Notes under the pieces: model-generated
Seen by the model: only the letters and a program-made list of their open reading frames with translations
Databases searched by the model: none
What the model was told of the DNA's origin: nothing
Virus record (IMG/VR): IMGVR_UViG_3300017747_001659
Location: 1 to 34,324 of that record
Direction: 5' to 3' (one strand)
Length of the DNA: 34,324 nt
Source: a virus
Lineage: Duplodnaviria; Caudoviricetes
Program-made: the position numbers and the translations under genes
Shown: one piece after another, positions 24,481-30,310 of the stretch
Position numbering within the stretch: position 1 is the stretch's first letter
Layout: the number at the start of each line of letters is the position of its first letter

Positions 24481-25054
24481 ATGGCGGCCCGAATGGGTTG
24501 AATACGCCAAAAAAATATTGGCTGCTGGTGCGACCATGGGAGAGGCGGCCAACGGGATAAACCATAAATTTGGTGCAGAAGTCACCCGCAATGCGATGAT
24601 CGGCAAGATTCACCGTTTGAAAGCAGATGGGGATTTCAATTTGCCCCAGCCTGAAAAATGGCATGGCAAGTCCATGGACGTTTTTGTTAGTCACTGGCGC
24701 AGCGGAATATCGTCAACGGATATGGGCCATTATTTTGGAGTTGAAGGAAGCGCTGTTCGGGACAAAGCGTATAAATATGGGTTAACCCCCAGGGGGCAAG
24801 AAACCGGATGGAAAGCTCTCAAAAAAAACGTCCCGGCCAAGCCCAAAGTCCCGTCTGACGGTATTAGCACTCGCACGGAGTTTCCCAATCCAAATGCTAA
24901 AGCTGTGCTGTTTGAGAATTTAAATAGCCGGATGTGTCGTTTTGTTATAGGTGACAAGCCTTTCTATTTCTGCGGGGCCGAAGTCGAACTTGGATCGCCT
25001 ATTCCCTACTGTTCATATTGCAGGAAGGTGATGTATGTGCCCGCAAAGCGCTAG
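24461..25054 (+). CDS. GcrA cell-cycle-regulator-like protein
   Basis: W......K...AG.T....A.......TRNAMIGKIHRL N-terminus and L..L..RMCRF.IGD....FCG......PYC..C C-terminus. GAATGGAG upstream of ATG 24461. Confidence 0.8.
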   Translation: MAKEAIKWRPEWVEYAKKILAAGATMGEAANGINHKFGAEVTRNAMIGKIHRLKADGDFNLPQPEKWHGKSMDVFVSHWRSGISSTDMGHYFGVEGSAVRDKAYKYGLTPRGQETGWKALKKNVPAKPKVPSDGISTRTEFPNPNAKAVLFENLNSRMCRFVIGDKPFYFCGAEVELGSPIPYCSYCRKVMYVPAKR

Positions 25055-25622
25055 GGAGGTTGCGTTGAAAAAAGAAGTTGAAACTATCGACTCAAACAAC
25101 ATCGTCCACTTGTTGGAAAAGCATTACGAAACGACGGGGCTCACGGTTCTTCGTATTGCGGCGTCTGAGTTGCGCCGCTTGTATGAGTTACTTGATCAAG
25201 AAGTGATGCGTATTTCAAACGGTGAACCGGAGAATGTGACCGTCCGTATGAGCGTGGTTCTCAAAATGGCTCACAGGTATTTTGGTATGCCGATTGAGGA
25301 AATCGTGTCTCACAGACGCTCACTGAAATACATCGTTCCGCGTCAGGTTACGGTGTATGTGGCCCGCAAGCTTACAGATCTTTCAACTCCGCAAGTTGGA
25401 AAATGGTTTGGCAATCGTGATCATTCAACAATCGTCCATGCTTGTAAAAAAGTGGAGGATGAGATCGGGAAGGGAAATCAGCAGTGGGTTAAGTATGTCG
25501 ATGAACTTTCTGCTTTGTGTAAAAAAGAAGCCGCTATTGAACATGCTAGAATAGAGGAAGCCAAAAGATGTCTGAAGATAACCAATCTGTCCTTGAGGAC
25601 GCGGCCCGCGTCGAATCCGTGA
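25035..25622 (+). CDS. DnaA C-terminal (domain IV) DNA-binding domain protein
   Basis: I.S.RR....V.PRQ...Y.ARKLT.LS.PQVG..FGNRDHSTIVHA.KKVE motif. No AAA+ domain. Start uncertain. Confidence 0.88.
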   Translation: MCPQSAREVALKKEVETIDSNNIVHLLEKHYETTGLTVLRIAASELRRLYELLDQEVMRISNGEPENVTVRMSVVLKMAHRYFGMPIEEIVSHRRSLKYIVPRQVTVYVARKLTDLSTPQVGKWFGNRDHSTIVHACKKVEDEIGKGNQQWVKYVDELSALCKKEAAIEHARIEEAKRCLKITNLSLRTRPASNP

Positions 25623-25891
25623 CCCTTGAGAGTGTGGATAAGTGCATGGCCATCGTGGATACTGTTTGCCGCGAAAATAATTTTGATGCGTCGGCAATGA
25701 TATTCATGTCGGTCAATATTGCAGCGCATCTGATGGCGCGCGGTCTGTTCTTTGCGGATGGCCCGGACGCCCGCGAACGGCTGCGGACAAATATGCTCAA
25801 TAACGTGTCTGAGATTATTGATTCAGCCCGGCAGCATATTGACCAGTCTGAGCGTGAGCTAAAGCAGAGTAGGATTGTTCGTCCTAATTAA
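25568..25891 (+). CDS. hypothetical protein
   Basis: 107-aa helical ORF with a GAGG RBS. Confidence 0.55.
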   Translation: MSEDNQSVLEDAARVESVTLESVDKCMAIVDTVCRENNFDASAMIFMSVNIAAHLMARGLFFADGPDARERLRTNMLNNVSEIIDSARQHIDQSERELKQSRIVRPN

Positions 25892-25909
25892 CGGTATCCC
25901 CCAAATGAC

Positions 25910-25946
25910 GACGGCGGCTTGACAACAGCCAGCCGCCGTCTATTCT
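25910..25946 (+). promoter_or_regulatory. overlapping hairpin (terminator-like) and promoter
   Basis: Perfect 10-bp inverted repeat GACGGCGGCT/AGCCGCCGTC. TTGACA(25919-25924)-16-TATTCT(25941-25946). Confidence 0.6.
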
Positions 25947-26008
25947 GGGAAAGGTTCGGGGTTGCAGCCCCTAACCGAATGACACTCTTGGAAACGTCGG
26001 AGAACGCT

Positions 26009-26239
26009 ATGCCATCGGCTAGCAAGATAAATATCCCCAAAACTGCCCGTAATCAAGACGCTGCCTATCTGGAAGCGGATATTCTTACGAATTTGCGGCT
26101 GGCTGCTGAGTTTTCTCGCCTAGCCGAATCACATGGCGCGTTGTTCGACGAAAACGGGTTCCGCTATTGCGTGGATCGGTTCCTCGAACACGCCCGTCTT
26201 GTCTCCACCAATCTCAAGAAACTGAGGGAGGTTAGCTAA
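26009..26239 (+). CDS. hypothetical protein
   Basis: ATG 26009 with a GGAG RBS, downstream of the promoter. Confidence 0.6.
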   Translation: MPSASKINIPKTARNQDAAYLEADILTNLRLAAEFSRLAESHGALFDENGFRYCVDRFLEHARLVSTNLKKLREVS

Positions 26240-26299
26240 AGCTTAACCGTTTACGCTCCCTTCAAAGACCGTCTGTCGGAGCAGCTATCCTGCCGTGGG

Positions 26300-26578
26300 G
26301 TTGGGCGCTGGTGTTGGGGGCAAAGTGGCCGACCTACTATACGGTCGGGCGCAATGAGGCACCTAATGGTGTGCCAGCACTTATAAGTCGCCTGCTTGGC
26401 TTATGAGTGTCACCGATGGATCGGGAATCTGTGGGAATGGGGGGTCAATGCCATCCGCCTCCTGCCGCAAGGCTGAAACCACAATGCAGGGGCGCTGACG
26501 GGGCTGGCTCCGAAAGTGCATCACCCCCCGGCAACGGGGGAATTGCGCCTCCAAACAATCACCAAAAGTGCAACCAAC
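26300..26578 (+). ncRNA. candidate large structured RNA
   Basis: Intergenic. Nested long-range helices, at least 6 internal hairpins, G-U wobbles valid on the + strand and GCAA tetraloops (see findings). Confidence 0.6.
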
Positions 26579-27130
26579 ATGACTGACGATTGGGATAAGC
26601 CGACACCGATAAGATCCAAGACGATTGCTGACGTCCTGAAGGACGGTAGCAAAAGTCGGGACTATATGAACGATGAGTTTAAGAGACTGGCTGAGAGAGG
26701 CCGTCAGGCTGAGGAGGCTGTGGCTCGTTATCTGGAACGCTGCGGCTTTGAGGTTCGACTGCCTGAGAAGAAAATACGGGAGAACATAGAGGATCGTAAG
26801 CAGTTCAGTGACGAAGGCGACTTGTTCTACAAGAAGGATGACATCTGGTATCAGGTAGAGGTTAAGAGCCATGACTACAGGACAAAGCCGTTTACCTGTA
26901 TTGCGGACTTTCCGTTTAAGGATGTCCTACTGGCGCGCGAGCATCGGATGAACTTCCGCACAACGTATAAATGGGTTATGGTTTCTAGTGATTTTAGGTA
27001 TGGGGCGGTCACGCCGTTGGAGAGCGTGATCTACTGGTATAAAGCGACAAGAAACAAAAAAAACTACGGAACAACAGAAACGGATTGGTATGTGCCGGTG
27101 TCGCATACCAAAATTGTAAAACTGGTTTGA
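26579..27130 (+). CDS. PD-(D/E)XK-family nuclease-like protein
   Basis: G..AE..V..YL...GF.V, D.GDL and VEVKS motifs. Start uncertain (26579 or a later ATG). Confidence 0.65.
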   Translation: MTDDWDKPTPIRSKTIADVLKDGSKSRDYMNDEFKRLAERGRQAEEAVARYLERCGFEVRLPEKKIRENIEDRKQFSDEGDLFYKKDDIWYQVEVKSHDYRTKPFTCIADFPFKDVLLAREHRMNFRTTYKWVMVSSDFRYGAVTPLESVIYWYKATRNKKNYGTTETDWYVPVSHTKIVKLV

Positions 27131-27144
27131 TAGGAGAAACAAAA

Positions 27145-27684
27145 ATGTTAACACAACTTTATAGGCATTTTGATAAAAATGGACAGCTTCTTTATGTTGG
27201 AGTCTCCCTATCAACGGTAGTTCGGCTCTCTCAACACAGGGAATATTCAAAATGGTATGATCAAATCGCAAATGTAACAATTCAAAATTATAACACCCGT
27301 GAAGAAGCGTTAGAAGCGGAAACTCAAGCAATAAAAAATGAAAACCCAAAATACAATATTAAAAAGACAAAAATAAAAGAAAAGCTAATAGAGCAAAATA
27401 CTCGAATTATTAAGGAAAGAATTGAGGAATCAAAAAAAGATATTATGAAAAGGGCAGTTAATTTTGACATGATTTATACGGTTGAAGATTTGGAAAGAGA
27501 GTTAAGAATAAGCAAAATGATAATTAAAAAAATGATAGATGATAAAAAATTAGGAGCTATTGTATTTAGCAAAATGCGTAAAACAAGTCATGGAATGAGG
27601 GATATAAAAAAATATTACGTCACCGGCTGGCAGCTAATAGACTTCATAGAAAATTGTCAGGCAACGGGTATTTATCCTCAATAG
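27145..27684 (+). CDS. GIY-YIG endonuclease with C-terminal HTH
   Basis: LYRHFD..G.LLYVG.S...R..QH and AL.AE..AIK.E.PKYN motifs. YTVEDL...L.IS HTH. Very AT-rich; AGGAG RBS. Confidence 0.85.
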   Translation: MLTQLYRHFDKNGQLLYVGVSLSTVVRLSQHREYSKWYDQIANVTIQNYNTREEALEAETQAIKNENPKYNIKKTKIKEKLIEQNTRIIKERIEESKKDIMKRAVNFDMIYTVEDLERELRISKMIIKKMIDDKKLGAIVFSKMRKTSHGMRDIKKYYVTGWQLIDFIENCQATGIYPQ

Positions 27685-27700
27685 ACGATAGGGGACTAGA

Positions 27701-29266
27701 ATGGAGCTTAGAGATTATCAGTCGGAGGCTATTCTTAACCTCCGCGAAGCCATCGTAAGGAAAGAAAAACCTGTCCTGTCGGCACCGACCGGATCGGGCA
27801 AAACGCTTATCGCTAGTGAGATATTTTCGCTGGCTAGAGCAAAGGAAAAGCGCGTTGTATTTGTCGTGCCTTTCCTGTCTCTGATTAATCAAACATGGAA
27901 GGCGTTTGAACGCGCCGGTATTGATGGCCGCGATATGGGCGTCATACAGGGCGCGCATGAACTGACGGATTATACTAAGCCGGTTCAGATTGCTTCGGCT
28001 CAAACGCTGGAGCGTCGTCCTCTGTTGCCAAAGGCCGATATTGTCATCTTTGATGAATGCCACATCAATAGGAAAATATATCAGCGCTGGATGAATGAAG
28101 CGCCTGACGTTTATTTCATAGGTCTTTCAGCTACGCCCTGGGCCGTTGGAATGGACGCCTTGTGGACGCAGATGATTATTGTGTCTACGTTGAGTGAACT
28201 GATTCAGAAAGGCCACTTGTCTGAGTTTCGGTATTTTGCTCCCGCACAGCCGGATCTGTCCAAAGTCCGTGTTGCTCGTGGCGATTATGTTGAGGCCGAT
28301 CTTGAGCAAGTGATGAGCAATACCGATTTGATTGCGGATATTGTGAATACATGGCGAGAAAAGGCCAATGAAAGACCGACGTTTTGTTTCTGTGTAAACC
28401 GCCGCCATGCACAGGAGGTTCAGCATCAATTTATTCGGGCTGGCATTCCGGCTGGATATGTTGACGCCTATACGAAGATTGAGGAGCGGGAAGCTTTAGT
28501 CGAACAACTCCGCCGGGGCGACCTGAAAGTCATCTGCAATATTGGCACGATGACGACGGGCGTTGATGCCCCGTTTGTGTCTTGCATTATTCTGGCTAGG
28601 CCGACCAAGTCTGAAATGTTGTTCATTCAGATTGTGGGCCGTGGCTTGAGGAAGGATGAGGCGAGCGGCAAAACTGATTGCCTGATACTGGATCATTCCA
28701 ACACGGCGCTGAATCTTGGTCGCCCGGATGAGATTTATTATGAGACTTTTCGGTCGGGGAAGTCTGCGACGTCGGGAGAGAAAAATAAGAAAGAGAAAGA
28801 GGAGAAGAAGCCAAAACTTTGCCCGCACTGTAAGTTTGTGATGCTCCCGAAGGAGAAAGAGTGCCCGTCCTGTGGATTTGTCATGCCGCCTCCCGTCAGT
28901 GAAATTGAAGTAGCTGATGGGGAGCTTACAGAACTTGGGTTTGCCGGGGTCAGGGCAAAGAATAAAGCTTTGCGCGACGAAAAGCAGGCTTTCTATTCTG
29001 GGTTGCTTTGGATAGCCCGTGACAGGGGGTATAAAACCGGGTGGGCTGATAACAAATATCGGGCTAAGTTTAAGGTATGGCCGCGTGGACTGGACGGGGT
29101 TGCATCTTTCCCTGATGCTTCTGTATTTAATTTTGTGAAGGCTCAAAACATAGCTTGGGCAAAGTCCAAGAATAATCCCGGCAATTCGGCTAAGGAGGCG
29201 ATGTCTCACGAATCAGTCCGGGATAGAGTTCGCGCACTATTTTCTCATGGGAGGCACAATGGCTAG
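27701..29266 (+). CDS. superfamily 2 DNA helicase with Zn finger
   Basis: LRDYQ, PTGSGKT, DECH, SAT, TTGVD, QIVGRGLR and CPHC...CPSC motifs. Confidence 0.92.
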   Translation: MELRDYQSEAILNLREAIVRKEKPVLSAPTGSGKTLIASEIFSLARAKEKRVVFVVPFLSLINQTWKAFERAGIDGRDMGVIQGAHELTDYTKPVQIASAQTLERRPLLPKADIVIFDECHINRKIYQRWMNEAPDVYFIGLSATPWAVGMDALWTQMIIVSTLSELIQKGHLSEFRYFAPAQPDLSKVRVARGDYVEADLEQVMSNTDLIADIVNTWREKANERPTFCFCVNRRHAQEVQHQFIRAGIPAGYVDAYTKIEEREALVEQLRRGDLKVICNIGTMTTGVDAPFVSCIILARPTKSEMLFIQIVGRGLRKDEASGKTDCLILDHSNTALNLGRPDEIYYETFRSGKSATSGEKNKKEKEEKKPKLCPHCKFVMLPKEKECPSCGFVMPPPVSEIEVADGELTELGFAGVRAKNKALRDEKQAFYSGLLWIARDRGYKTGWADNKYRAKFKVWPRGLDGVASFPDASVFNFVKAQNIAWAKSKNNPGNSAKEAMSHESVRDRVRALFSHGRHNG

Positions 29267-29839: not shown

Positions 29840-30103
29840 TCATGCTTCTTGATATACGTCAAGATAGTAGACAGTGCAGTAATCGCCGCAGGGGTCCATA
29901 TAATCCCAATAGGGACGGCACTGGCCCTTGAGTGTAGAACGCTTGGCTTTCCAACCTTGGCGTATCGCGTCACGATATGCCTGATCGCGGGCTTCTTTGG
30001 CCGCTTCATCAGTAGAGTAGGGCGTCCAGTTACGATCAGCGCGCTGGGCTTTGTTGCCCCAAAGGCGGGAAAACGAAATCTGTCCGTGGTGCGTAATCAT
30101 CAT
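29840..30103 (-). CDS. small early protein
   Basis: Has its own promoter/operator, GAATGGAG RBS and terminator. Confidence 0.7.
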   Translation of the reverse strand: MMITHHGQISFSRLWGNKAQRADRNWTPYSTDEAAKEARDQAYRDAIRQGWKAKRSTLKGQCRPYWDYMDPCGDYCTVYYLDVYQEA

Positions 30104-30128
30104 TGCTCTCCATTCGTTGATGATGATT

Positions 30129-30157
30129 TATCATACACCTTGTAAGATAGATTGCAA
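30129..30157 (-). promoter_or_regulatory. promoter with palindromic operator
   Basis: TTGCAA-16-TATGAT on the minus strand. Operator TATCATACA-cct-TGTAAGATA at 30129-30149. Confidence 0.75.
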
Positions 30158-30207
30158 TAGGGGTGGCAAAATATTTTTTGACTAAATCCCTAACAAACTA
30201 TAAATAA

Positions 30208-30310
30208 GAGGCAGAACCATCTGGTTCTCCTTTCTAACTTATTCGCCGGTCCCTATCCCGGTGATAAGCCCCGCCAGCGTCATCTCCATTCCGCTGGTGG
30301 GGCCTTTTTA
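30208..30310 (+). ncRNA. candidate anti-Shine-Dalgarno sRNA (three hairpins, ending in an intrinsic terminator)
   Basis: Upstream TTGACT (30178) and AT-rich -10. Three stems, two with G-U pairs valid only on the + strand. CU-rich loops and U-tract at 30305-30309. Confidence 0.6.

Follow-up and report, generated by a model that had tools for sequence, protein, structure and literature searches.

How does a phage begin to replicate its DNA when its replication region encodes no recognisable primase and no full initiator? The question is raised by the window, the whole of a linear viral record (IMGVR_UViG_3300017747_001659; 34,324 nucleotides, estimated 60% complete). By its genes (VRR-NUC, GcrA, a lone DnaA domain-IV protein, an SF2 helicase) this lake phage is of a temperate, alphaproteobacterial type. 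A sequence-only reading had placed at 26300-26578 a multibranch structured RNA closing exactly at a nuclease start codon, and offered a ColE1 RNA II-like primer, a ribozyme, a translational control element and a nuclease-associated RNA as alternatives. It had also seen no initiator or primase gene in the window. A lone DnaA C-terminal (domain IV) gene at 25035-25622 on the + strand (PF08299, E 3e-22), also carried by the phage records L002, L003 and L004, had been missed; judged from its sequence, its product is a possible accessory or rival initiator.

The element sits between a 76-aa gene (26009-26239) and the gene of a 183-aa PD-(D/E)XK-like protein (26579-27130), 1.1 kb 5′ of the helicase gene (27701-29266; phrog_16, ResIII and Helicase_C by profile matches), all on the + strand. 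The 76-aa gene, to which no function is assigned, has homologues 57-89% identical in L002, L004, L009, L033 and L034; it yielded no family match and no match among cultured phages. The 183-aa protein carries the motif D..GDL..VEVK and gave no Pfam or PHROG match, its nearest named Atlas cluster being PDDEXK_14 (0.93, 32% of members); it is likely a passenger nuclease. No SD-like purine run precedes its ATG at 26579, as had been noted. Between it and the helicase lies a low-GC GIY-YIG and HTH gene (27085-27684) that is missing in L002 and L003, and one contig (X2) joins 27134 directly to the helicase start; the gene is likely a recent mobile insert. In L009 the helicase homologue (L009:3939-6419) has 826 aa, with an insertion after the Walker A motif that we take to be intein-like.

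At 25910-25946 on the + strand, and overlapping with an inverted repeat of 10 bp, lies a predicted sigma70-type promoter (TTGACA-16-TATTCT), the best promoter-like site in 25500-27800 (10/12). Its arms and hexamers are kept, with a variable spacer, in five of five aligned phages, and it is the likely source of a transcript running through the element. A GGGG/CCCC hairpin with a variable loop stands 3′ of the promoter and inverted repeat, within 25910-26008, in five phages; this stretch resembles a c4/CI-type leader, and the matching region of L009 has a BjrC68 match at threshold (39.2 vs 39 bits). The window's strongest local fold is elsewhere, at 30179-30309 (tile 30101-30300, z -7.1), where two hairpins accompany a promoter-like TTGACT..TATAAA and where a GC stem plus T run resembles a terminator; it has no Rfam match and, by its predicted fold, is possibly a small RNA or leader.

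The element is a real conserved non-coding feature at about 26269-26575 on the + strand, corresponding to a predicted RNA of ~300 nt. It is ~90% identical to its counterpart in L002, against 78% for the whole region, and conservation begins ~30 nt 5′ of the start first proposed (26300). Conserved coding was looked for in the overlapping frames of both strands and none was seen: a stop interrupts the + frame in both the window and L002, though none does in the sequences P0002 and P0006, and 1-nt indels shift this frame relative to the nuclease gene; in L002 the ORF on the minus strand does not extend across the element. No match to the element was found by BLASTN among phages or among 72,556 plasmids. 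Pattern scans for relatives returned L002 only in one case and L002 plus nine unrelated sequences among ten in another, while GTDB yielded none and metagenomes the window's own contig only. One RNA library holds a 241-nt contig, ~94% alike and wholly inside the element, a weak hint of expression because contigs cannot show strand, ends or level. At 26485-26523 the window carries L002-type alleles within a background of the type seen in the public-run contigs X8/X11, and either recombination or chimeric assembly may account for this.

Evidence for structure comes from folding and, better, from covariation. With the ends first proposed, the + strand folds at z -4.24, none of 200 shuffles being as good, against -1.67 for the minus strand and -1.95 with DNA parameters. 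The z depends on the ends chosen, however (-2.24 and -1.81 for the L002 homologue), and unbiased 200-nt tiling gives only -1.6 and -2.5 over the element, 12 of 171 window tiles lying at or below -2.86. The element was compared across four variant classes, L002 and the public-run contigs X19, X8/X11 and X18; a second X18 contig (35 nt, five differences) was left out as probably unrelated. A 13-bp stem closed by GUC/GGC (26377-26410, + strand) shows three double, compensatory changes and three distinct single, consistent ones, with no break. The other inner stems show wobble-type or loop changes only (e.g. CCGA/TCGG, CCTGC/GCAGG wobble), and hairpin loops vary while their stems stay constant. 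In the C-G hairpin at 26525-26540 the stem is invariant and the loop changes from GCAA to GCGA in X19, still a GNRA loop.

All the complementary segments that had been listed by eye, with the G6 tract and the TGTGG/CCACA pair, are present in the sequence, and the inner stems are kept in the variants; the outermost helices are not. GTTGG/CCAAC is broken in L002 and X19, TTGGGG/CTCCAA loses four of six pairs in L002 (kept in X19 and X8/X11), and GCGCT/AGTGC loses one pair in X19. Closure exactly at the nuclease start codon is therefore specific to the window strain. Inside, a predicted pseudoknotted core spans 26415-26483 (GATGG 26415-19/CCATC 26451-55; CTGTGGG 26429-35/CCACA 26479-83; G6 26439-44). 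One of its pairs, G26418-C26452, is A-U in X19, provided that a 1-nt insertion is placed after the position, and the remaining core pairs are uninformative because they are invariant. From 26444 to 26512 follow a P3-like helix (GTCA/TGAC, 26444-47/26496-99) around the CCTGC/GCAGG domain, a small hairpin and the anchor TGGCTCCG. A hammerhead-like reading of CTGAC..GAAA was rejected, the core being incomplete; for a ribozyme in general there was no positive evidence and no Rfam match to a catalogued catalytic core. A structured non-coding RNA in the replication slot is thus what the comparisons support.

The slot is itself swappable. In the seven phage records with the 76-aa gene, which marks its 5′ side, four mutually unrelated non-coding elements follow that gene: type A in the window and L002, type B in L003 and L004 (L003:5045-5420, L004:4925-5285; ~370 nt, z -1.68), type C in L009 (L009:2628-3099; z -2.44) and type D in L033 and L034 (L033:4250-4714; z -3.54). 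Types B-D each have a G run and no Rfam match, and add three further uncatalogued non-coding elements.

The sequence-only reading had not recognised the family of the RNA. No Rfam model matches it, and the window gave no match to RF02932 (Betaproteobacteria-1) either at the gathering threshold (49.4 bits) or at E up to 10, nor did L002. Its 3′ 80 nt (GCTGACG..TGGCTCCG-tag..CACCA-tag), however, match the uncatalogued tail of this orphan motif, the common module lying mostly 3′ of the 120-position Rfam model. RF02932 is typed as an sRNA in Rfam, and we take it to come from a 2017 survey of 224 motifs. A pattern built on the 3′ part gave 18 hits, three of them lake-phage contigs that also carry CACCAAAAGTGCA, the 13-nt second anchor, which the pattern did not contain. 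Further scans brought the total to 28 lake-type loci, all of one clade. Four of four lake relatives tested are full-length RF02932 matches (78-81 bits).

A model made from 11 lake sequences shows covariation in P1-P3, and in its alignment the window's 13-bp stem falls on P1. Over 92 kb it scores the window element highest (13.4 bits) and that of L002 next (11.8 bits), the following hit reaching 10.9; this is a weak result and partly one by construction. The link from window to RF02932 scores low (nhmmer E 0.39; lake model E 0.004 vs 0.028 for the best unrelated hit). Common to both are the small hairpin, GCTGACG, the TGGCTCCG-tag, the CACCA-tag, CYGTGGG (window 26429-35) and a first stem closed by GUC/GGC; GCTGACG and TGGCTCCG recur in the window, lake-phage and Burkholderiales copies. 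The window thus has the CYGUGGG motif and a P3 with the 3′ strand GCUGAC by which membership is judged, as well as the extended tail as defined here, GGCTCC-tag ... CACC-tag with coupled tags. Unlike RF02932, its element is ~110 nt longer 5′, has a G6 tract, lacks at the aligned places the P1 loop GUCGG..ACGGCAG and the junction GGYGGCGAAG, and belongs to a phage of alphaproteobacterial type that encodes an SF2 helicase but no initiator fragment. Since the window fails the Rfam model, we regard the element as a remote, enlarged relative of RF02932 and not as a member.

Database searches of phages with the lake form and the Burkholderiales form gave no match. RF02932 was not found in 151 sampled genomes of the class of G007, which is not proof of absence, and present in one of 151 sampled genomes of the order of G010. 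In some lake loci (e.g. L039, L048, L060, L036) a variable hairpin/terminator-like cassette of 100-150 nt is swapped directly 5′ of a nearly constant RF02932 RNA. A subfamily has a different 3′ tail (L277, L285, L286, L288, L290, L296, L297), in several cases followed by iteron-like repeats of the GGATATGCTC type. We found no literature on RF02932 or the element; supplementary motif listings were covered in part, so an earlier listing is possible, and in the available part of PMC10690425 six supplement files held no match.

A further feature, absent from the sequence-only reading, is a repeated tag. In the window AAAGTGCA stands after TGGCTCCG at 26513-26520 (tag 1, a predicted guide segment) and again after CACCA at 26565-26572 (tag 2; with its anchor 26560-26572), both on the + strand, the template strand under tag 2 being the predicted DNA target. 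Two copies in 34 kb are unremarkable alone; the evidence is that the tags change in step. The identical stretch measures 8 nt in the window, 10 in L002, and 11 in both X19 and X8/X11, with three different extensions. In RF02932 copies from Paraburkholderia and Caballeronia both tags read AGGGGCAT, and in one from Burkholderia both read AGGTGCAT. One pattern scan gave 120 hits, mostly chance, with 13 kept, and identical 8-nt tags occur in 10 of the 13 RF02932-like loci found by a tag-free pattern. Over seven tag classes (23 of 25 loci parsed, two not) identity within a locus's own pair averages 6.9 of 8 against 4.5 when permuted, a value reached in 5 of 20,000 permutations. The Rfam model by itself gave 22 hits (two repeating earlier loci), which divide into 12 with a recognisable tag pair, mostly matching at 5-7 of 8 positions, eight with a different tail and no tag pair, and two without a second tag. 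Tag identity within the lake set, a single clade, is mostly due to the construction of the search patterns.

The nearest internal partner of the tags, ATTGCGC at 26542-48, stays constant while they change. That identity on the same strand is kept while internal partners are fixed fits a hybrid of tag 1 RNA with the template strand, which needs such identity. Where tags mismatch, tag 1 has G against A or T against C in tag 2 in seven cases and the reverse in three (by eye), a non-significant bias of the kind expected from wobble in an RNA:DNA hybrid.

What relatives encode bears on the same question. Two relatives are available as complete or apparently complete genomes, G001 (complete, with this element) and G002 (estimated complete, type B). 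In neither did a PHROG search (54 of 58 ORFs in G001 and 65 of 69 in G002, ORFs of at least 90 aa) find a primase, polymerase, DnaB/DnaC or full initiator, and six-frame searches with PF08273, PF13362 and PF13730 and TBLASTN with four primases were negative. Apart from the lone DnaA domain-IV protein, no initiator or primase was thus recognised in either, as for a ColE1-type replicon, although some small ORFs are without annotation. Among 177 records of cultured phages with a helicase of the window's type, the four opened all have an adjacent primase. The Pseudomonas phages PS-1 and YA3 have long unannotated GC-rich gaps before the helicase (L270:2881-3495, L272:2759-3231), with a primase also present; these gaps have no Rfam match.

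In 26 of the 28 lake-type loci a headless initiator lies at most 1.5 kb downstream of the RNA, with 57-75 open codons before the motif; the other two loci have less than 300 nt of downstream DNA. The headless form matches only residues 177-254 of initiator profiles of 288-383 positions, and in 7 of 26 lake relatives the initiator fragment is directly 3′ of the RNA. In L295 (lambda-O-like with HTH_36) and L291, an initiator including its N-terminal part stands downstream of the RF02932 match, and replacement of an initiator by the RNA is therefore not universal.

Our preferred reading, to which we give a probability of about 0.55, is that the element is a ColE1-like RNA-primed origin at which tag 1 would pair with the template strand under tag 2; of the functions first proposed, the ColE1 RNA II-like one therefore reads best. 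It draws on non-coding conservation, covarying stems, the common 3′ module, coupled tags, slot swapping and the lack of any primase or full initiator found in complete relatives; the steps after folding we infer. Against it speak the RF02932 copies that stand next to full initiators or lie outside phages, the Rfam-model hits without a tag pair, the predicted nested fold that pairs part of tag 1, the low scores linking the window to the family, and the lone DnaA domain-IV protein, which could itself act as initiator. The promoter at 25919 would drive a transcript through the element. The transcript would fold, and tag 1 of the nascent RNA would pair with the template DNA strand under tag 2. Host enzymes might then make the resulting R-loop into a primer, through RNase H and Pol I processing or by simple strand opening, and the SF2 helicase might load at the R-loop or remodel it.

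Known systems offer parallels. Like ColE1 RNA II, the element would be a non-coding transcript of a replicon without a recognised initiator (PMC5043065, PMC4412123, PMC4555960), with a G tract and, within the RNA, a segment that could pair with the template strand further downstream. For its hybrid, ColE1 relies on a run of rG that pairs with dC in the template strand (PMC4412123); the primer is produced by RNase H and Pol I (PMC4412123, PMC5043065). In contrast, the element has no sequence homology to RNA II or RNA I (Rfam; 72,556 plasmids), its anchor is a variable mixed-sequence 8-11-mer, no antisense RNA I equivalent was identified, and priming is only predicted. In Ceduovirus (lactococcal c2, bIL67, 923; non-coding PE1 transcript) three unrelated origin types fill one slot, and the non-coding types replicate plasmids without phage proteins (PMC7150918); the interchangeable, unrelated non-coding types A-D are the counterpart here. 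There is no sequence match, origin function was shown there and is predicted here, and the available part of that paper mentions no tag pair (PMC7150918). ARRPOF, GEBRO and PAGEV are likewise structured motifs (223-349 nt) tied to replication regions, ARRPOF lying in a region that allows rep-independent replication (PMC5737381), but they are plasmid-borne, and the element has no Rfam match to these families.

The strongest competitor, which we think unlikely, is that the RNA works co-transcriptionally as a switch or leader, through antitermination, attenuation or translation control: the two tags would vie for a single internal partner and thereby govern downstream genes. In favour of this, the element is part of the early operon and follows a conserved promoter, the next gene lacks an SD, predicted folds allow the tags to pair with GCGCT or TTGCGC, and the internal repeats TCCTGCCG and GGGCGCTG permit alternative folds. 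In nested folding the 3′ half of tag 1 is predicted to be paired inside the RNA, which keeps a switch in play. Against it, the internal partners stay constant while the tags change, the downstream genes vary freely, no terminator-like site was found near the element, and the missing primase and the headless initiators would be left unexplained. Translational control of the nuclease in particular is weakened because the helices covering its start are not conserved.

Somewhat more doubtful is a structured RNA standing on its own, possibly mobile and either trans-acting or selfish, whose tag pair arose by DNA recombination or gene conversion and whose cassettes neighbouring nucleases spread. RF02932 copies in Burkholderiales genomes (L161, L169, L200, L202, L204, L229, L207, L274), one on a 1.5-Mb plasmid, have unrelated neighbours and in some cases a -10-like box of their own; at the eight Paraburkholderia and Caballeronia loci read, the neighbourhoods were non-phage and no replication gene was recognised. 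These orphan copies are possibly mobile or relics and suit such an RNA, as do the frequency of nuclease-like genes next to family members, the recombinant look of the window and the RNA-library contig. Their fit is offset by the fixed position in phage replication modules and by a between-tag segment that ends in the conserved CACCA anchor, unlike an insertion with target-site duplication.

That the downstream PD-(D/E)XK-like protein uses the element as a guide or scaffold, in the manner of HEARO or omega RNAs, we consider very improbable. The nuclease directly follows every type A sequence seen (window, L002, X19, P0002, P0006), yet in L003 the same nuclease stands behind an unrelated type B element, which argues against a guide role. 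Relatives in the family adjoin unrelated genes or none, and the nuclease-like gene of L071 has no BLASTP similarity to the window's; the consistent pairing of one RNA family with one nuclease family that such systems imply was not seen. Equally improbable is a single-stranded DNA structure or a protein-bound DNA origin, for instance for the DnaA domain-IV protein: comparative methods cannot reliably separate ssDNA from RNA motifs (PMC5737381, in its available part) and a perfect DnaA box lies at 25633-41, but the G-U-rich covariation, kept GNRA loop and strand asymmetry speak for RNA, the number of DnaA-box matches (9, against a mean of 6.8) is what chance would give, and the box is kept in L004, not in L002 or L003. 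The GC-skew minimum was discarded as a pointer to the element; it goes with the change in gene direction near 23.5-24 kb.

Returning to the RNA-primed origin, a wider proposal, which we hold tentatively and at somewhat less than even odds, is that a phage family of interchangeable pseudoknotted RNAs finds its own origin by pairing. An 8-11-nt guide would read and open the downstream DNA, become the primer and replace primase and DNA-binding initiator; the window would carry an enlarged alphaproteobacterial form that works with an SF2 helicase and whose specificity could be reset by changing both tags. An RNA-primed origin of this kind, if borne out, would assign a role to an orphan bacterial RNA motif, explain how replication starts in complete phage genomes without a recognisable primase, polymerase or full initiator, and extend ColE1-type priming to a variable anchor of mixed sequence.
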